From contig CAWDHY010000002.1 of NCBI GenBank assembly GCA_963802255.1, positions 183,480 to 247,479 on the forward strand: a stretch of DNA of 64,000 nt, read 5' to 3'. The translations under genes were made by a program, and so were the position numbers. How positions within the stretch are numbered: position 1 is the first letter of the stretch; each line of letters starts with the position of its first letter. Shown here piece by piece: positions 46,154 to 64,000 of the stretch. Below the pieces are notes generated by a model that was not told where the DNA came from, searched no databases, and saw only the letters and a list, made by a program, of their open reading frames with translations. The DNA is from Candidatus Magasanikiibacteriota bacterium. Its GTDB lineage: Bacteria; Patescibacteriota; Patescibacteriia; Magasanikbacterales; GWA2-37-8.

Positions 46154-46495
46154 TTACATCTTAATCTCAATATCCACGCCAGAAGGCAAGCTCAAACTCA
46201 TAAGAGCATCCACGCATTTTGGCGAAGCGTTCATAATGTCAATCAAACGCTTGTGTACGCGCATTTCAAATTGCTCACGTGCATCCTTATGCACGAAAGT
46301 TGAGCGATTAACTGTAAATTTGCTTTTTTCCGTAGGAAGCGGTACTGGCCCGATTACTTTTGCATCATTTCTTTCCGCGGTTTCAATAATCATCCTAGTT
46401 GCCTGATCAATAATCTTGTTATCATACGCGCGAATTTTGATGCGAATTCTGGTTGCTTCAACCGCTTTCTTTACTGTCGCTGTTGCTGAAGTCAT
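46154..46495 (-). CDS. rpsJ: 30S ribosomal protein S10
   Basis: Conserved S10 core [16 protein letters not shown]... Confidence 0.9.
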
Positions 46496-48589: not shown

Positions 48590-49828
48590 CTAGCTTGAGG
48601 GGGAATGTTGCTTGAGGGTGGACATGGCCGCCGCGATCTCGTCCTGTAGGGTCGTTTGCAAAGCCTCTTTCGCTTTGGCCATCCTGTTCCTGGCCTCAAC
48701 GATCGCCTTCTGCATGGCAGCGGTTTCCATATCACACTCGGCCACGACGGCCAGCTTTTCATCCTGCTTTTGTTTCAGAATGGACCGACGGGAAGAGAGG
48801 TCTGCGAAGAGACTGGAAAGCTCGGACTCGACGCTCCTGATGTCCTGCATGACTTTGGCATGCGATACGCGCAAGCCCGCGAGCTCCTTGCTTTTGTCAA
48901 CCAGGTCTTCGCGCACAGTCGCCAGCTCTCGCGTCTCGTAGGTCAGCCTGGAAATCACTCCCCGAAGCAGGTCGTTCACCAGCTGCCTCGCCACGATCAC
49001 CGCGTTGTTCTCGTTGACCTCATCGGCCATTACTGCAAGCGACTCGTTGTCGGGGAAAATGATACCCACTTCGGAAAGAGCCTGACTGATCAGGCGGCTG
49101 TCGCGCAAACGACCGCCTTCGGTCGCCGAATTGGCGACTACGATTCTTTCTTCGGCTGACTCCATCTGACGGAAAGCCGCCGCTTCTGCCGCTTCTGCTT
49201 CGCGCAGACGCGTTTCGGCTTGCTCTCTCCGCGCGGAAGCCGCCTCGAATTTCTCTTGAGAGAGAATCTCGGTCGCAATCGCGTCACGCTCGGCGTTTTC
49301 AATATCCGCCTTCAATTGGTCAATCTGATGATAGACTTCTTCGAGCTCGATACGCTTCTGTCCGATGGCCTGATGGCCCTGCATGATCTTGTTGGCCAGC
49401 ATGTCCAATTCCTGAACACGCTTGTCCATTTCTTCGAGCGCTTTCTCACGGCTTCTTTTGGAAGTCGATCCGGCCATCAGCCGTTCAACGGTTTCCTGAA
49501 GCGCCACGAACTCTTCCGATTCCTTGCCGATCTTGAGGATGAAAGCGACATACGAACAGACCTGGGGTGGCTTTACCAGCCGGACGTTCTTGGCGATGAA
49601 TTGCCGAATAACCCATATCGCATCATCTTTTTCCACCCGTTCGGGCTGAAAAATATGCGCGAACACCTCACAAAGGTTGTGCTCGAATTCCTTGTTGACA
49701 CTGCGTAGGAGGCCTAGCAAGCGGTCGGCGTCATCGTTCGTGGGCGGTCTGGGCATCTGAGCGAAGAGCATTACCAGCAAGCTGATAATCTCGTCTTTTG
49801 AGTACTCCGTTTCCCTGTTTTTTGCCAT
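48590..49828 (-). CDS. GC-rich (about 53-57% GC) 412-aa protein: about 110-aa N-terminal globular region followed by an about 300-aa coiled coil
   Basis: Single long ORF across the GC-rich island; SD aaagggtga 5 nt before the ATG; heptad-like E/A/R/L-rich sequence. Confidence 0.6.
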   Translation of the reverse strand: MAKNRETEYSKDEIISLLVMLFAQMPRPPTNDDADRLLGLLRSVNKEFEHNLCEVFAHIFQPERVEKDDAIWVIRQFIAKNVRLVKPPQVCSYVAFILKIGKESEEFVALQETVERLMAGSTSKRSREKALEEMDKRVQELDMLANKIMQGHQAIGQKRIELEEVYHQIDQLKADIENAERDAIATEILSQEKFEAASARREQAETRLREAEAAEAAAFRQMESAEERIVVANSATEGGRLRDSRLISQALSEVGIIFPDNESLAVMADEVNENNAVIVARQLVNDLLRGVISRLTYETRELATVREDLVDKSKELAGLRVSHAKVMQDIRSVESELSSLFADLSSRRSILKQKQDEKLAVVAECDMETAAMQKAIVEARNRMAKAKEALQTTLQDEIAAAMSTLKQHSPSS

Positions 49829-54402: not shown

Positions 54403-54431
54403 AAAAACGGGCCAGAACGGCCCGTTTTTTT
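54403..54431. terminator. bidirectional intrinsic terminator aaaaacgggcc-agaa-cggcccgttttttt
   Basis: Perfect stem with flanking A- and T-tracts. Confidence 0.75.
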
Positions 54432-56637
54432 ATAAATCACCAACATCTCTTAAAAAACTTCCCGGACTTATTTTTATTTGCGAATCTTCGTCTATATATT
54501 CTACTTCGTCTGAATCATCGAGCGACAAACTCCGCCCATTGCCGAGAAGTGATTTATCGTCCAAAAGTTCACTGTCAATTTCTTCCAAAAATATACTTGG
54601 TCCTGGCAATGCGTCGCCCCAGCCCGAGGCTGGCCGGCCTTGGGCCGGGCCGTTCTCCATCGGATAAGTTAAAAATAAATTTTTCTTGGCGCGGGTGATA
54701 GCGACATAAAATAATCGCCGTTCTTCTTCAATCCCGCCCCGTTCACTTGCCGCCCTGCTATTTGGGAACGCTCCGCTCGCCAGGTTGATCATAAATACGG
54801 CCGACCATTCCAGCCCTTTCGCCTGATGCACGGTAGAAAGTACTATTTTTTTGTCTGTCGGCACTTTGTTATTTTGATTTTTTTGACCATAATCCTCCGT
54901 CAAATTCGCTTCAGCTAAAAACTCGGCTAAATCATTAAACTTCCCGGCATAAATCACCAATTGTTCAACATCGCCACGGCGGTCCCGGCTGTCAAAATAT
55001 TCAGCCTCCAGATAGTCATTATAGCCGGTCTCCAAAATCGTCCGCACCAGTTCAGCCGGGTGGCTGGTGCCGATACCAAGAAGCTCATCCCATATCCGCG
55101 TAAAATTTTGCCAGCCAACTTTTGCTTTTTCGCCCAACATATCAAGACCGATTGATTTGATTTCAGATACATTTGCCGCACCGCGAACCGCCTGATAAAT
55201 TTTTTGCGCCGCCACCGGCCCAATTCCTTCTTCTTTTAACAATATGCGCATCCACGCTGCTTCATCAGCCAGATTACTTAGCAAACGCAAATAAGCAAGC
55301 ACATCTTTCACGTGCGCCCGCTCAAAAAAGCGCACACCACCGCGATAGTCATAGGCAATGCCGGATTGCGCCAGTGCCATTTCCAATTGTTGAGAATGGT
55401 GTGAAGCACGAAACAAAACGGCGATTTCTTTAGGCGCGACACCTCCGTCTAAAATTTCAGAAATTTTTCTTACCACAAAATCCGCTTCTGCTGCCTGGTC
55501 TGCTTGCGGTCTTAACTCCGGTTTTACTCCGCTTTGAAAAATTGTTTTTAAATTTTTCTGATATTGATTTATGTTATTAGCGATGACATCGTTAGCTAGC
55601 GACAAAATCTCCTGGCTGGAACGATAATTTGTTTCCAGTTTAAAAATTTTAGCATCAGGATAATCTTTCCCAAAGCTCAAAATATTTTCAATGTCAGCGG
55701 CGCGAAAAGAATAGATGCTCTGCGCGTCGTCGCCTACCGCTAACAGGTTGCCGTGTATTGATGCCAATTTTTTAATAATGCTTGCCTGAAGGCGGTTGGT
55801 ATCCTGATATTCGTCAACTAAAATGTATTTGAATTGATTCGCGTATTTGGCCAAAATCATATTGTCATCCTGAACTTGTTTCAGGATCCTTTTTTCTGTT
55901 TTATCAGATGCTGAAATAAATTCAGCATGACCTGGACGCTGTAAAAGCAAAAGTAAATTCGCCAATAAATCATCAAAATCCATTGAATTCGACGCGCGCT
56001 TTCTTTTTTCATAATCACCGGCAATCTGTTTTATTTCTTCAGACCATCTGAACCAGCTCGGATATTTTATATCTAAAACATCTTCAATTGTTGTTTCAGC
56101 ATTACGGGCATAGCTTATTATGCCTTTTATCACGCCAGCCGAAGGAAATTTTTGTCCGCCTGTTTCCAAATTTAAATTTTTCAAGCTAAGTTTTACCAAC
56201 GCTTCGCTGTCATCGGCGTCTAAAATTGTAAAATTTTGTTGATAACCGATTACGCCGGAATATTTTCGTAAAATTTTGTAGGCAATATGATGAAAAGTTC
56301 CGGCCCAAGGCAAAACGTTCATCGTTTTGTCATTCCGACCGACCCGCCAGCTGGCGGGGAGCGGAGGAATCCCTTCGGAAACGCCGGAGGGATCCCTCGG
56401 CTTCGCTCGGGATGACAATTCGGCGACGCGTTTTATCATCTCCCCTGCCGCCTTGTTGGTAAATGTAACCAACAAAATATTTTCTGGGGATACGCCCTGC
56501 TCCAAAAGATAAGCCACGCGATAAGTGATAGTCCGCGTCTTGCCCGAGCCGGCGCCGGCCAATACTAAACAAGGGCCATCGCCTGTGAGGACGACGGCCA
56601 ATTGTTCCTGATTAAGTTCTGATGAAAAATCAGTCAT
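54430..56637 (-). CDS. UvrD/PcrA-type superfamily 1 DNA helicase carrying a 30-aa in-frame insertion from a palindromic repeat element
   Basis: Motifs AGAGSGKT, TFTNKAA, TFH, DEYQDTN, VGDDAQSIY; the GC-rich insert encodes RAKPRDPSGVSEGIPPLPASWRVGRNDKTM between motifs I and Ia. Confidence 0.85.
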   Translation of the reverse strand: MTDFSSELNQEQLAVVLTGDGPCLVLAGAGSGKTRTITYRVAYLLEQGVSPENILLVTFTNKAAGEMIKRVAELSSRAKPRDPSGVSEGIPPLPASWRVGRNDKTMNVLPWAGTFHHIAYKILRKYSGVIGYQQNFTILDADDSEALVKLSLKNLNLETGGQKFPSAGVIKGIISYARNAETTIEDVLDIKYPSWFRWSEEIKQIAGDYEKRKRASNSMDFDDLLANLLLLLQRPGHAEFISASDKTEKRILKQVQDDNMILAKYANQFKYILVDEYQDTNRLQASIIKKLASIHGNLLAVGDDAQSIYSFRAADIENILSFGKDYPDAKIFKLETNYRSSQEILSLANDVIANNINQYQKNLKTIFQSGVKPELRPQADQAAEADFVVRKISEILDGGVAPKEIAVLFRASHHSQQLEMALAQSGIAYDYRGGVRFFERAHVKDVLAYLRLLSNLADEAAWMRILLKEEGIGPVAAQKIYQAVRGAANVSEIKSIGLDMLGEKAKVGWQNFTRIWDELLGIGTSHPAELVRTILETGYNDYLEAEYFDSRDRRGDVEQLVIYAGKFNDLAEFLAEANLTEDYGQKNQNNKVPTDKKIVLSTVHQAKGLEWSAVFMINLASGAFPNSRAASERGGIEEERRLFYVAITRAKKNLFLTYPMENGPAQGRPASGWGDALPGPSIFLEEIDSELLDDKSLLGNGRSLSLDDSDEVEYIDEDSQIKISPGSFLRDVGDL
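56329..56418. repeat. GC-rich palindromic repeat element of about 90 bp (copy U) inserted in frame in uvrD/pcrA; RPE-like
   Basis: Terminal inverted repeats TTGTCATTC ... GGATGACAA; internal palindromes cccgccagctggcggg and gagggatccctc; about 75% identical to the copy in tgt. Confidence 0.6.
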
Positions 56638-57366: not shown

Positions 57367-58587
57367 ATGCCAGCATTTTTTGAACTAATTCACGAAGACA
57401 AAAAAACCGGCGCGCGCGCCGGAATTATACATACCGACCACGGGGACATACCAACCCCTTGTTTTATGCCGGTCGGAACTCAGGCGACTGTTAAAACTCT
57501 GGACCAAACCGATTTAGAAAAACTGGACGCGCCAATCATCCTCGGAAATACTTACCATCTTCATCTGCGCCCGGGTGAGGACCTCATCCATGAGCTCGGC
57601 GGACTGCATGAATTTATGAATTGGAAACATCCAATTCTAACTGACTCCGGAGGCTTCCAGGTTTTTAGCCTGGGATTGCAAAAAGAAGGAAAAGGACAAG
57701 GAGGACTAGTGGAAATTGATGAAGATGGCGTGGCTTTCAAATCGCATATCGACGGCTCCACGCATCGTTTCACTCCGGAATCAGCCATCCAAATTCAACA
57801 CAAACTCGGCGCGGATATAATTATGGCCTTTGATGAATGCACGCCTGACAGCGCGCCATACGAATATACAAAAGAAGCAATGGAGCGGACACATCGCTGG
57901 GCCGAGAGATGCTTGGCCGAACATGAAAAGCTCGGCCGTGTCATTCTGAATGGAGCGAAGCGAAGTGAAGAATCCCTTGCGGCTCGCAATAAGGGATCCT
58001 TCGCTAACGCTCAGGATGACAAACCGCATAACCAATTTCTTTTTGGCATCATTCAAGGCGCCAAACACAAAGATCTGCGCGAAGAGTCGGCCCGATATAT
58101 TTCTTCGCTTGATTTTGACGGCATCGCTATCGGCGGAGAATCAATCGGATATAATATGGAGGCGACCGCAGAAATAATGAACTGGTTAAAACCGATTTTG
58201 CCGAAAGACAAACCGCGCTACACAATGGGCGTCGGACTTTCCCCAAGTGATTTGCTGAAAGTAGTGTCAAATGGCGCGGATATGTTTGACTGTGTGGCGC
58301 CGACCCGCCTAGCCCGCCACGGTATGCTGTTTATCAAAAATGATGAAGAAAGAATAAATATTAATAACGCGCAATTTGCCAAAGATTCATCACCGATTGA
58401 TAAAAATTGCGATTGTCCGGTATGCGCAAAATATTCTCGCGCCTATATTCACCATCTATTCAATGCCGGGGAAATGACCGGCCAGCGTCTGGCAACAATT
58501 CACAACATTCACTTTATGCTGAATCTGATGCGTGAAGCGCGACGGGCTATTTTGGAAGACAAATTTGAAAAAATGATAAAATTATAA
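57367..58587 (+). CDS. tgt: queuine tRNA-ribosyltransferase (tRNA-guanine transglycosylase) with an about 28-aa in-frame insertion from the palindromic repeat element
   Basis: TIM-barrel motifs (DSGGFQ, zinc site CDCPVC...H); the GC-rich insert encodes GRVILNGAKRSEESLAARNKGSFANAQDDKPHN before the conserved QFLFGIIQG. Confidence 0.85.
   Translation: MPAFFELIHEDKKTGARAGIIHTDHGDIPTPCFMPVGTQATVKTLDQTDLEKLDAPIILGNTYHLHLRPGEDLIHELGGLHEFMNWKHPILTDSGGFQVFSLGLQKEGKGQGGLVEIDEDGVAFKSHIDGSTHRFTPESAIQIQHKLGADIIMAFDECTPDSAPYEYTKEAMERTHRWAERCLAEHEKLGRVILNGAKRSEESLAARNKGSFANAQDDKPHNQFLFGIIQGAKHKDLREESARYISSLDFDGIAIGGESIGYNMEATAEIMNWLKPILPKDKPRYTMGVGLSPSDLLKVVSNGADMFDCVAPTRLARHGMLFIKNDEERININNAQFAKDSSPIDKNCDCPVCAKYSRAYIHHLFNAGEMTGQRLATIHNIHFMLNLMREARRAILEDKFEKMIKL
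57940..58022. repeat. GC-rich palindromic repeat element of about 83 bp (copy T) inserted in frame in tgt; same family as the copy in uvrD
   Basis: Shares gtcattc..gaatccctt..agggatcc..cgctc.ggatgacaa blocks with copy U; internal stem gaatccctt / aagggatcc. Confidence 0.6.
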
Positions 58588-60146: not shown

Positions 60147-61124
60147 ATGTCCCGCGTTTTTTCCGGCATCCAGCCGACAAACATTCTCCATATCGGCAAC
60201 TACCTTGGCGCCATAAAAAATTGGATTGAACTGCAAGATAAATACGATTGTGTTTTTTCGGTTGTTGATTTGCACGCCATGACCGTCAAAACCAACCCGA
60301 AAACATTCAACGATAATATATTAATGATGGCCAAAACATATCTGGCGTTTGGAATTGACCCAAATAAATCTTTAATATTTCGCCAGTCCGATGTGCCAGC
60401 CCATACAGAACTCACCTGGATATTGAATACCATTACTAAAATATCCGAGTTGGAAAGAATGACTCAATTCAAGGACAAGGCAAAACAACATAAAGAAAAC
60501 GTGAACGTGGGTTTATTCGGCTATCCGGTTCTAATGGCCGCCGATATCCTTCTTTACGACACCAATCTGGTGCCGGTGGGCGAAGATCAGGTTCAGCACA
60601 TTGAGCTCACCCGCACGCTGGCAGAAAGATTTAATAAATTATATGGCGAAACATTTGTTCTGCCCGAGCCGTTGGTTAAAAAACACGGGGCGCGTATTAT
60701 GGGGTTGGATGATCCAAGCAAAAAAATGAGTAAGTCATCATCAAATGCCGGCAGTTATATTGCCCTGCTTGATGACCCTGCCGTTGCCTCAAAAAAAATA
60801 ATGCGGGCAGTGACGGATTCGGGTAGTGAAATAAAATCAGGGGCTAGTAAGCCGGCGCTAACCAATTTGCTCACTATTTATTCCCTTCTTTCCAATCGTG
60901 AAATCAAAGATATTGAAAAAGAATATGCGAACAAAGGATATGCCGACTTCAAAAAAGGATTGGCTGAAACAGTTACAAATTTCCTTTCAGATTTTCAGAC
61001 AAAATTTAATGCCATAAAAAACAACGAAGTGCTTGATATTCTTCTGGACGGCGGAAAAAAAGCAAATGCAATTGCTGATAAAAAAATGCTGGATGTCAAA
61101 GCCAAGGTCGGCATAACTTTATAA
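60147..61124 (+). CDS. trpS: tryptophan--tRNA ligase
   Basis: Class I HIGN and KMSKS motifs, 325 aa. Confidence 0.9.
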   Translation: MSRVFSGIQPTNILHIGNYLGAIKNWIELQDKYDCVFSVVDLHAMTVKTNPKTFNDNILMMAKTYLAFGIDPNKSLIFRQSDVPAHTELTWILNTITKISELERMTQFKDKAKQHKENVNVGLFGYPVLMAADILLYDTNLVPVGEDQVQHIELTRTLAERFNKLYGETFVLPEPLVKKHGARIMGLDDPSKKMSKSSSNAGSYIALLDDPAVASKKIMRAVTDSGSEIKSGASKPALTNLLTIYSLLSNREIKDIEKEYANKGYADFKKGLAETVTNFLSDFQTKFNAIKNNEVLDILLDGGKKANAIADKKMLDVKAKVGITL

Positions 61125-61126
61125 AA

Positions 61127-61390
61127 ATGGAAAATGATTTAAACCCGGTGCCGCTAATGTTGCCCGAACCGGGACTCGGCCAAAAATTATTTAAACAGCT
61201 CATTATCCTTGGCGCCGCGTTAATTATTATCATAGCCGGTTGTATTTTTGTTTATTTAAAAAAACAACCCCCAAAAGAGGATGACCGCGCGCAGATAATT
61301 ATTCCCATACCTACAATTCCTATGATACTTGCATCTGAAGCGTTTCAAAACGAAGGATATATCCCAGGCAAGTTCACTTGTGACGGACTA
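61127..61390 (+). pseudogene. N-terminal fragment of a membrane-anchored PEBP/YbhB-like protein, truncated at the compositional junction
   Basis: TM helix then YIPGKFTCDG (PEBP signature start); the reading frame then runs into GC-rich DNA with non-protein-like translation. Confidence 0.35.
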
Positions 61391-61750
61391 AATATCAACT
61401 CCCACGGGCACAGACTCGGATGTTATCCTCAGTGGCGCTCCGACAGTGGATTCATCAATGCCAAGGTGATGCAGAACTTGTGTTTGCCCCTCAACATTGC
61501 CTCCGCCATGGCTTCCCATGGCTGCTACAATAAATGGCTGCGCTCCCATGGCATGCAGAGAATCGACAACTGTTTTCAATACAGACGGGATGCCCGTGAT
61601 TCCCCTGCTCCCGGCCGTAACAGCAACGCTCATGCCGGGATGCACGCTGGATGCAAATCTTTGCATCTGCTGCTCAATCACAGCGGCAACATTATCGATG
61701 CGCGGCCTTGGGAAATGCTGTCGTATTTTTGCAAGCGCCAACTGTTTCAT
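61388..61750 (-). pseudogene. N-terminal 120-aa fragment of a LarA-like (DUF2088, lactate racemase N-terminal domain) protein, truncated
   Basis: MKQLALAKIRQHFPRP...MSVAVTAGSRGITGIP...AAMGSHGG pattern like the LarA N-terminus; ends at the junction with AT-rich DNA. Confidence 0.3.
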
Positions 61751-61821
61751 CGCTATAGTTTGTCCTTATCATAGAGTCTTTGCAGGATTACCGTTCGGAA
61801 ATCCTGCAAATAATCGCTTCC

Positions 61822-62796
61822 TTACTTCAGCTTCATCAATTTTTCTTCAGATAGAAGCTGTTTTATCAGCTCCGTCTGCTCCTGCATATATTTCGTTGCC
61901 TGCGCCATGTTCATGGGGTTGGGCACAAAGCCAGCGTCTGTTAATTTGGCCTGGACTTCCTTGTCGGTAACAACTGCATAGAACGCTTTGTCAAGCTTCT
62001 GTTTGATATCCTCCGGAAGATTCTTCGGCGCAATTATGCCACGGTCAATACGCGGATAAATCTTGTACCCCATTTCAGCGAATGTGGGAACATCCGGCAA
62101 TTGTTTCATCCGCTGTTCCGTGCCTACCGCAAGAATTTCCACCCCGCTTCCTTGCATTTCAACTGCAGCAGGTGAGTTTGTAAACGCCGCATCGACGTGT
62201 CCACCCATGATTTGCGGTTTTACCTGTCCGGTCCCCTGCAGCGGGATATACGTCAGTTGAATGCCGGCCAGCTTCATGAACTGGAGCACATTCAGATGTG
62301 GCCCTGAAAATTTTCCTACGGCGGATATCGTTATTTTCCCCGGGTTTTTCTTTGCGTAGTCGATAAATTCTGTCAGCGTCTTTGCCGGAAACCCTTTCTT
62401 CACAACGAGCGTTGCCGGGGTGTTCTCAATCATCGTAAGATATGTGAAATCCTCTGTCTTGTACTGAACATCCTCCATCGTAAGCGGCTGCGTGATAACA
62501 TGCGGCGAATTGAAGCCCGCAAGCGTATATCCATCCGCCTTTGCATTCGCCAGGGTCTGCCATGCGAGCGCACCACCGGCAGCCGGCTTATAATCCGGAG
62601 CAAAACGGACGCCGAGCGCCTTTTCAAAATACGGTTGCATGGCCCGGAATTCGATATCCGACTCGCCCCCGGGATTGAATGCGATGATGTACGAGATTTC
62701 TTTTGCCGGATACGTTTCGCCTGCTGCCTGGACTGCGGTTACTGAAAAAACAAGAACAACTGACAGGATGATGCTGACAAAATGTTTTCTTTTCAT
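61822..62796 (-). CDS. tctC: tripartite tricarboxylate transporter substrate-binding protein (TctC/Bug family), GC-rich
   Basis: Signal peptide, 324 aa periplasmic binding protein typical of the Bug family. Confidence 0.7.
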   Translation of the reverse strand: MKRKHFVSIILSVVLVFSVTAVQAAGETYPAKEISYIIAFNPGGESDIEFRAMQPYFEKALGVRFAPDYKPAAGGALAWQTLANAKADGYTLAGFNSPHVITQPLTMEDVQYKTEDFTYLTMIENTPATLVVKKGFPAKTLTEFIDYAKKNPGKITISAVGKFSGPHLNVLQFMKLAGIQLTYIPLQGTGQVKPQIMGGHVDAAFTNSPAAVEMQGSGVEILAVGTEQRMKQLPDVPTFAEMGYKIYPRIDRGIIAPKNLPEDIKQKLDKAFYAVVTDKEVQAKLTDAGFVPNPMNMAQATKYMQEQTELIKQLLSEEKLMKLK

Positions 62797-62844
62797 TGCG
62801 ACTCCTTTCTCTTTAAGGTGAGGTTATTAAGAGGTCCTAACGTT

Positions 62845-64000
62845 TCATACATCATCATCGCCGATCTTTTCCTTGAGCTTTGACCTTCTGTTGCGGATCG
62901 ACGGAAGCATTGTCGACATGATCAGCAGGGCAGACACAGTCATGAATGTTGCTGAAATCGGTTTTGTTAAAAAAACGCTCGCGTCGCCCTGATTGATCAG
63001 CAGCGAGAGGCGGAGATTGCTTTCCATCATCGGTCCAAGAACAAGGGCGAGAATGAGTGGCGCCATCTCGAACTTGAACTTTCGCATCAGGTATCCAAGA
63101 ACTCCGAATCCGATCATCAGGCCTATTTCGACCTGACTGAAGTTCAGGCTGTAGACGCCGATGAGGCAGAAGATAAGGATGAGCGGGAACAAAATTGAAT
63201 AGGGAATTTTCAAAACCTTTATCCAAATGGGGATTAAAGGCAGATTCAGTACGAGCAGCATGGCGTTGCCTAGATACATGCTTATGATCGTTCCCCAGAA
63301 AATATCCGGATATTTTGAAATGAACATGGGTCCCGGCTGTAACCCATGTACCATGAATGCACCGAGAAGAACAGCAATAACCGAATTTGCCGGAATACCG
63401 AGCGTAAAGAGCGGAATCATGGCGCCGCTGGAGGCCGCATTGTTCGCAGCCTCCGGACCCGCGACTCCGGCGATGAAGCCGGTCCCGAATCTTTCAGGGG
63501 TTTTTGAAAGTTTCTTCTCCAATGCATAGGATGCGTAGGTGGAAATAACCGGCGAAGGGCCCGGCAGCACGCCGATCAGAAAACCGAGCCCGCTTCCGCG
63601 CAATATCGGCATAATGGCGTCTTTCCAGTCCTGAAGATTCGGGAAAAGGTTCTTCACCTTTTCCGTAACAAGCGTTGTTGGGATAATCCGTTCCACGTTC
63701 ATCAGGATTTCTGAGATGCCGAAGAGCCCCATCACCGCGGGGATAAAGCCGATTCCGTCAGCTAGCTCAAGAACTCCGAACGTAAGCCGCTGCGTTCCTG
63801 CGATGGTATCCATGCCGATGGTGCCGAGCAGCAGACCAAACACGGCGGTCATAAAATCTTTTAGAATCGTACCGGACGACATGTAAATGATGATGACAAT
63901 ACCCATCAGCAGCATCGAAAAATATTCAGGCGGACCGAAGGCGAGCGCAAACTCCGCCATGGGAGGCGCCAGAAGCACTATACCGACAATGCCCAACGTG
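62845..64000 (-). CDS. tctA: tripartite tricarboxylate transporter permease TctA, C-terminal about 383 aa (gene continues beyond window end)
   Basis: Multi-TM permease with TctA-type sequence; GC-rich composition continuous with tctC. Confidence 0.7.
   Translation of the reverse strand, partial: TLGIVGIVLLAPPMAEFALAFGPPEYFSMLLMGIVIIIYMSSGTILKDFMTAVFGLLLGTIGMDTIAGTQRLTFGVLELADGIGFIPAVMGLFGISEILMNVERIIPTTLVTEKVKNLFPNLQDWKDAIMPILRGSGLGFLIGVLPGPSPVISTYASYALEKKLSKTPERFGTGFIAGVAGPEAANNAASSGAMIPLFTLGIPANSVIAVLLGAFMVHGLQPGPMFISKYPDIFWGTIISMYLGNAMLLVLNLPLIPIWIKVLKIPYSILFPLILIFCLIGVYSLNFSQVEIGLMIGFGVLGYLMRKFKFEMAPLILALVLGPMMESNLRLSLLINQGDASVFLTKPISATFMTVSALLIMSTMLPSIRNRRSKLKEKIGDDDV

Follow-up and report, generated by a model that had tools for sequence, protein, structure and literature searches.

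A deposited Patescibacteria contig very probably misjoined to Desulfatirhabdiaceae DNA between two broken genes

The 64,000-nucleotide stretch of DNA analysed here (the window; contig CAWDHY010000002.1 of assembly GCA_963802255.1, positions 183,480 to 247,479), deposited as sequence of a Candidatus Magasanikiibacteriota bacterium, passes at position 61398 from a chromosome of the candidate phyla radiation (CPR; Patescibacteria) on the left (1-61397) to DNA of a Desulfobacterota bacterium on the right (61398-64000), and two convergent genes, encoding a PEBP/YbhB-like protein and a Lar_N-domain protein, are both severed there at one base. The junction is understood, with high confidence, as that of a cross-phylum chimeric contig, hence as an assembly misjoin within a deposited metagenome contig. 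A misjoin is favoured because each side is colinear with its own lineage, because the right side is a selectively constrained donor strain at 97.5% identity, and because no machinery of insertion is present. The marks of an inter-genome chimeric contig that can be tested on sequence were all found, namely a step in composition, a switch in taxonomy and colinearity of each side with its own lineage; those of a genomic island, which are insertion machinery, presence in relatives and amelioration or decay, were not. A preliminary description of the window had posed the choice between assembly misjoin and recent crude insertion, correctly as it turns out, and the evidence now favours the former.

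The joint, earlier described as an abrupt junction near 61390, is indeed abrupt and is placed at 61397-61400. In protein as well as DNA alignments, homology to CPR genomes extends through codon 91 of the PEBP gene (AAC, 61397-61399) and then collapses. Homology to Desulfobacterota begins at 61398, with no base beyond, in the alignments to three donor contigs. The first of these, L001 (CAVPHN010000004.1, a 343,288-bp contig of the "uncultured delta proteobacterium MFD09964.bin.2.161"), was found with a right-side 26-mer among GTDB representative genomes, where it was the sole contig matched; L007 (a 10.3-kb MEGAHIT contig) and L008 (a 29-kb contig, ENA ERZ25039527 contig_87065, record end 29096) were reached via homologues of TctA, a permease encoded on the right side. 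At most 2 nt (AC, 61398-61399) are common to both sides, and nothing lies in between.

Composition changes with homology. The guanine-plus-cytosine (GC) content is 42.3% in the first 61,390 bases compared to 50.2% in the last 2,610. Equal-sized 2.6-kb segments of the left side, taken as reference, have a mean of 42.4% (standard deviation 1.8%, maximum 48.4%), so that the right side stands 4.4 standard deviations higher; its 300-bp segments have a GC content of 0.45-0.55. For the three genes on the right, GC at third codon positions (GC3) amounts to 0.51-0.62, compared to 0.41 ± 0.055 for the 35 long left-side open reading frames (ORFs) used for reference. The comparison of tetranucleotide profiles on either side, proposed in the preliminary description, gave the same picture: the distance from the bulk of the window peaks in the last segments and is the largest of the whole window. 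The compositional step at the junction exceeds chance. It is smaller than first estimated, since the right side had been put at 55-60% GC, which the measured value of about 50.2% contradicts, and the left side, called AT-rich, is only moderately so at 42% GC.

The left side is anchored as Patescibacteria by trpS (60147-61124, + strand), whose tryptophanyl-tRNA synthetase product (TrpRS; PF00579, E 4.4e-79) has its best match, at 88%, in a metagenome-assembled genome (MAG) of Ca. Magasanikbacteria, followed by many Patescibacteria at 67-83% in a list that is Patescibacteria throughout. The genes to the left of the joint are housekeeping genes of the kind ordinarily found in CPR genomes. Directly after trpS stands the PEBP/YbhB-like gene (61127-61399, + strand), assigned from alignment and from synteny with the orthologues that follow trpS, and its first 91 codons are kept, as expected from the truncation reported earlier. 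The remnant comprises a signal/transmembrane segment and the start of the PBP domain, ending in ...FTCDGLNIN with about 13 domain residues left; it has no Pfam match even at E ≤ 10 and does not qualify as a PBP-domain protein. The ORF opening at 61127 runs on past the joint, through antisense DNA of the Lar_N gene, to a stop at 61774. Five contigs of CPR relatives carrying trpS (L002-L006; TrpRS 83-88% identical in L002-L005) show what the undisturbed locus looks like. In four of the four with a complete gene (L002-L005), trpS is followed by an intact PBP-domain gene of 200-224 amino acids, about 210 codons as a rule, recognized as PEBP orthologue after trpS in L002, L003 and L005 and matching PF01161 at E 2e-38 in L002. 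The corresponding gene of L006 runs off its contig, and L005 has further CPR genes beyond the intact one. The foreign block is absent from all five.

A large serine recombinase gene (Resolvase/Recombinase/Zn_ribbon_recom) was observed on the minus strand directly 3' of the intact PEBP gene in L002 (9816-11238) and L003 (7616-8647), among them the closest CPR relative (TrpRS 88%); the structure of the trpS-PEBP region may differ from one related CPR genome to another.

Three genes lie on the right side, all on the minus strand. TctC, the substrate-binding protein of a tripartite tricarboxylate transporter, is complete at 324 amino acids (61822-62796; PF03401, E 1.9e-49, 169 bits against a cut-off of 27). 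Of the TctA permease (62845-64000; PF01970, E 3.2e-112, 375.7 bits against a cut-off of 28.9), the C-terminal 384 of 505 codons are visible; these match profile positions 105-423, and the gene is therefore severed only by the end of the window. Both had been named correctly in the preliminary description, which ascribed them to a genome of Betaproteobacteria type. That origin does not hold. The right-side matches and the named members of the protein clusters are Desulfobacterota, and the donor is therefore not a betaproteobacterium. The 90% cluster of TctC contains the Desulfatirhabdiaceae protein MDO9109447.1 together with members on the 343,288-bp contig L001 and on a public contig of 255,295 bp considered below, and the named cluster members for the donor proteins belong to Desulfatirhabdiaceae, Desulfobacterales, Syntrophales or "Deltaproteobacteria". 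Judged from these sequence matches, the donor is a member of Desulfobacterota, family Desulfatirhabdiaceae, a relative of sulfate reducers.

The third gene is the one broken at the joint. The Lar_N-domain (LarA-like/DUF2088) gene occupies 61388-61750, with its donor part at 61750-61398, and is identified by homology to a 413-aa gene in L001 (2424-3665) and L007 (8038-9279), which is followed downstream by a Mem_trans gene in both. The fragment consists of 117 full donor codons plus 2 nt, after which V-D-I-stop is read from CPR DNA to give a 120-aa product. An N-terminal LarA-like fragment had been described before: the truncation stands, with 117-118 codons kept, and the LarA label is weak. 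The full-length donor homologue matches Lar_N only at E 1.9e-6 (27.6 bits against a cut-off of 23.3), DUF362 falls below its own cut-off, and the window fragment has no significant Pfam match; going by these profile scores, "Lar_N-domain protein" would be the safer name. An intact gene of 410-415 amino acids is present in L001, L007 and at least eight other cluster members. The spacer between tctC and the Lar_N gene, part of the donor block with its 97.4-97.7% identity to L001 and L007, holds a stem-loop (61774-61815) with 20-nt arms that are 85% complementary.

Gene order on the donor contigs agrees with that of the window. In L007 it reads ABC transporter, short-chain dehydrogenase/reductase (SDR), SAF/GD_AH dehydratase, TctB, TctA, TctC, Lar_N protein and Mem_trans; L008 likewise has TctB-TctA-TctC, and L001 has TctA, TctC and Lar_N, with tctB outside the stretch examined. 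The donor cluster spans 276-10229 of L007 and 3794-12968 of L008. Its ABC transporter is of the sulfonate/nitrate type, the GD_AH protein is annotated by the Joint Genome Institute (JGI) as a subunit of (2R)-sulfolactate sulfo-lyase, and the cluster probably serves the catabolism of organosulfonates or hydroxy acids in Desulfatirhabdiaceae. We also observed that tctC, intact in the window, is split into two ORFs in L001 (1533-2352), where cysK, too, is apparently split, and that the GD_AH gene is split in L008; these frameshifts would fit indel errors of the long-read assemblies concerned.

The foreign block is, moreover, an ordinary, selectively constrained and unameliorated strain of a free-living donor species. 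Over window positions 64000 to 61398 it is 97.66% identical to L001 (58 mismatches, 3 gaps); identity to L007 is 97.43% and that to L008 is 95.75%, in each case across the whole 2.6 kb. Taken pairwise, window and L001 (97.66%), window and L007 (97.46%) and L001 and L007 (97.85%) are practically equidistant. The right side shares alleles with each of the three contigs in a mosaic pattern, as would be expected in a recombining population, and of the coding changes private to the window 16 are synonymous and four are non-synonymous, the latter conservative replacements.

Evidence from the public contig of 255,295 bp, on which the window products were traced through protein clusters, shows that both sides were joined before the window was taken. 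It carries the identical TrpRS (P0001), TctC (P0121), the 120-aa Lar_N product (P0251) and the full 505-aa TctA (P0252, 100% identity). The partial TctA product, as cut by the window end, has no entry of its own in the protein collection. The two severed genes meeting at one base with no overlap resemble contigs set end to end, and it could be supposed that the join is absent from any assembly, two contigs of one bin having been concatenated when the record or the window was built. With the products of both sides on one public contig, concatenation at the building of the window is ruled out, and with the 120-aa Lar_N product, which ends in residues and a stop codon read from CPR DNA, being itself a called gene there, the idea as a whole is scarcely credible. 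Further donor neighbours on the same contig are TctB (P0380), an SDR and a GD_AH protein identical to that of L007, from which a foreign block of at least 6.2 kb follows. The 90% clusters contain no full-length Lar_N protein, no Mem_trans gene and no aldehyde:ferredoxin oxidoreductase (about 11 kb upstream in the donor) from this contig.

We therefore turn to how a misjoin could have come about. A Magasanikbacteria-like Patescibacteria chromosome would have been broken in the PEBP gene and a Desulfatirhabdiaceae chromosome in the Lar_N gene, just downstream of its tctBAC cluster, and the two broken ends would have been joined end to end with no more than 2 nt of common sequence. Two common nt at the joint are too few for a k-mer (de Bruijn) graph to have connected the sides. 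The simplest cause would be a long read of chimeric origin, or some comparable error of overlap, through which the contig was extended where the true path stopped; the join would then have been made in silico or in the library and not in a cell, and the broken genes, the fused ORF at 61127-61774 and the 120-aa "LarA" product would be functionless by-products. Chimeric contigs that cross phyla, with abrupt changes of GC and of gene taxonomy, have been documented in assemblies made with metaFlye, metaMDBG and hifiasm-meta (bioRxiv 10.1101/2025.04.22.649783). The project from which the MAG of L001 derives used Flye --meta on nanopore reads (PMC12313526).

The surroundings of the joint were searched for other causes. 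There are no flanking direct or inverted repeats beyond chance level, no target duplication and no terminal repeat; no integrase occurs at the joint, where the right-side genes visible in the window are tctA, tctC and larN in chromosomal order; the nearest tRNA gene is at 29.3 kb. Plasmid matches to the right side are limited to partial TctA at about 64% identity. Without flanking repeats or a nearby tRNA, and with plasmid matches of that kind only, origin of the right side from a mobile element, plasmid or phage was rejected. A nanopore read chimeric in silico, with internal adapter, was likewise dismissed, as Oxford Nanopore adapter sequence is absent from the joint. Cut positions of HinfI or MlyI type, checked by eye, did not fit the break. 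A junction-spanning 24-mer had 0 matches in JGI metagenomes and a donor-side 26-mer had 0 matches in JGI metagenomes and IMG/VR, hence these collections yielded neither a further, independent instance of the junction nor another haplotype.

Several points weigh against the misjoin and must be set beside the evidence for it. Joining at a 2-nt microhomology is also a product of illegitimate recombination, and donor DNA continues for at least 3.6 kb past the window end on the 255,295-bp contig. Above all, the contig L008 ends (L008:12968) at the base homologous to window position 61398, which is exactly the same break, the L008 sequence leading up to it being "...GTGCCCGTGGGAGT". Window and L008 moreover agree against L001 and L007 at 10 sites, of which seven fall within the 353 bp beside the break and three in the other 2,250 bp. 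A random chimeric read alone does not predict the matching end of L008; it needs co-assembly, or else a real recurrent breakpoint. L008 is not a noisy copy of the window strain: this was considered and rejected, as the two differ by 4.2% and the differences are mostly synonymous (32 synonymous and four non-synonymous codon differences in TctC). In the 353 bp beside the break the window differs at eight sites from L008, at 14 from L001 and at 18 from L007, and L008 is its closest relative there.

Two accounts of the coincidence are offered. Both contigs may come from one assembly graph, in which, going by how Flye builds repeat graphs, the chimeric path set against a second strain would create a node opposite the junction and end L008 there. 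Alternatively, a structural boundary or DNA end may recur at this place in the donor population, and a misjoin would be likelier at such a free end. The latter refines the misjoin rather than replacing it: the break on the donor side would be a real, recurrent boundary in Desulfatirhabdiaceae (a site-specific insertion, a rearrangement or a DNA end in Lar_N) to which the CPR sequence was attached artefactually. We regard this as possible, yet distinctly less probable than not. The identical terminal base of L008 despite 4% divergence speaks for it, as do the clustering of seven of the 10 sites specific to window and L008 next to the break and a small palindrome, GGAGT-G-ACTCC, adjoining the break position in intact Lar_N genes. 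It is opposed by the lack of any inserted-element sequence on either contig and by the intact Lar_N genes of L001, L007 and at least eight other cluster members, and a shared assembly graph would explain the coincidence as well.

The findings just discussed could, in contrast to a misjoin, also be read as a real and very recent horizontal acquisition. Desulfatirhabdiaceae chromosomal DNA, 6.2 kb or more in length and possibly that of a host or neighbour, would have entered a Magasanikbacteria-like CPR cell and been end-joined at the 2-nt microhomology, with destruction of the PEBP gene. The clean joint is in keeping with such an event, both sides stand on one deposited 255,295-bp contig, and a second contig is broken at the same donor base. 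Nonetheless, nothing sets the block apart from living donor strains (the distances are equal, the alleles mosaic, synonymous and non-synonymous changes stand at 16:4 and the GD_AH protein is identical); it has not been ameliorated, either in GC (50.2% versus 42.3%) or in GC3 (0.51-0.62 versus 0.41); no CPR relative (L002-L006) has it; and the named top TctA matches are all of Desulfobacterota type. L008 does not help the case, being 95.8% identical to the window compared to 97.5-97.7% for L001 and L007: window and L008 are not nearest relatives overall, and a single ancestral insertion in the CPR lineage, shared by both, is therefore rejected. The C-terminal half of the PEBP gene, finally, was sought with a full PEBP orthologue as query, and no second piece from the 255,295-bp contig appeared among the best 120 matches (at least 190 bits), a weak negative in that a short or uncalled fragment would escape. 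We consider acquisition very improbable. The suggestion made earlier, that the DNA might be host-derived in an epibiotic CPR organism, is accordingly disfavoured, given no amelioration, no monophyly with L008 and no second PEBP half among those 120 matches. Much the same small likelihood attaches to a physical join in its combined form, in which very recent capture of at least 6.2 kb from Desulfatirhabdiaceae (possibly the host) by 2-nt end-joining is coupled with a recurrent, site-specific donor DNA end that explains L008.

The CPR part of the window presents some features of its own. The uvrD gene (54430-56637, - strand) has two in-frame insertions, at 56329-56412 (28 codons) and 55861-55932 (24 codons), that are absent from the L005 orthologue, which has other insertions of similar flavour at different positions. 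The one at 56329-56412 is an 84-nt GC-rich palindromic element with termini TTGTCATTCCGA...TCGGGATGACAA and a folding energy of -62.6 kcal/mol. These insertions look like miniature palindromic elements living in-frame in CPR genes, and they account for a GC peak of 0.58 at this place. In tgt (57367-58587, + strand), positions 57960-58060 form a similar coding segment, palindromic and resembling a repeat (...VILNGAKRSEESLAARNKGSFANAQDDKP...), in place of which the L005 orthologue carries another repeat-like segment. The strongest compositional outlier of the CPR part (tetranucleotide distance 0.30) is an ORF at 48590-49828 (- strand), located between tuf and fusA with about 50% GC, for a 412-aa Ala/Glu-rich, coiled-coil-like protein. 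The S10 protein of rpsJ (46154-46495) is identical to one on a 2.8-kb contig from run ERR12035938 (Logan), so that this CPR population, or one very close to it, is present in that run.

Lastly, the junction has importance mainly in practical terms. If it is an artefact, a public CPR record includes 6 kb or more of genes from Desulfobacterota (TctABC, a SuyAB-like dehydratase, SDR). Read literally, these genes would wrongly credit a Patescibacteria organism with uptake and catabolism of organic acids or sulfonates, and they would mimic horizontal transfer or a link to a host. A genuine join would be an event of a kind rarely caught directly, in which a CPR bacterium captured DNA across phyla very recently, and it would indicate which organism is the partner of that bacterium.

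Compared to known cases, the window is most like the chimeric contigs of long-read assemblies (10.1101/2025.04.22.649783), with which it shares a switch of GC and taxonomy at a single base within a long contig, the lack of a common repeat and the colinearity of each side with its own lineage. Those cases were diagnosed from 100% read clipping and a coverage step, whereas the present one is recognized from its sequence; it also differs in that a second contig ends at the homologous base. The foreign composition, the disrupted resident gene and the 2-nt microhomology are also features of a genomic island formed by illegitimate recombination. Unlike an island, however, the block has no integrase, tRNA target, direct repeats or amelioration, it is an arbitrary slice of the donor that ends mid-gene, and it is 97.5% identical to free-living donors while absent from related CPR genomes. 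As in contamination by mis-binning, genes of another phylum in a CPR record would inflate its apparent metabolism (tripartite tricarboxylate transporter, dehydratase, SDR). Here, by contrast, the foreign DNA sits inside a contig, and contig-by-contig decontamination would therefore miss it. The transporter genes themselves correspond to the TctABC cluster of Desulfatirhabdiaceae/Desulfobacterales, with TctC and TctA above their Pfam thresholds, TctB on the same contig and the same order of TctB-TctA-TctC-Lar_N; the cluster of the window differs from its donor counterparts in being cut off in the Lar_N gene, and in nothing else.

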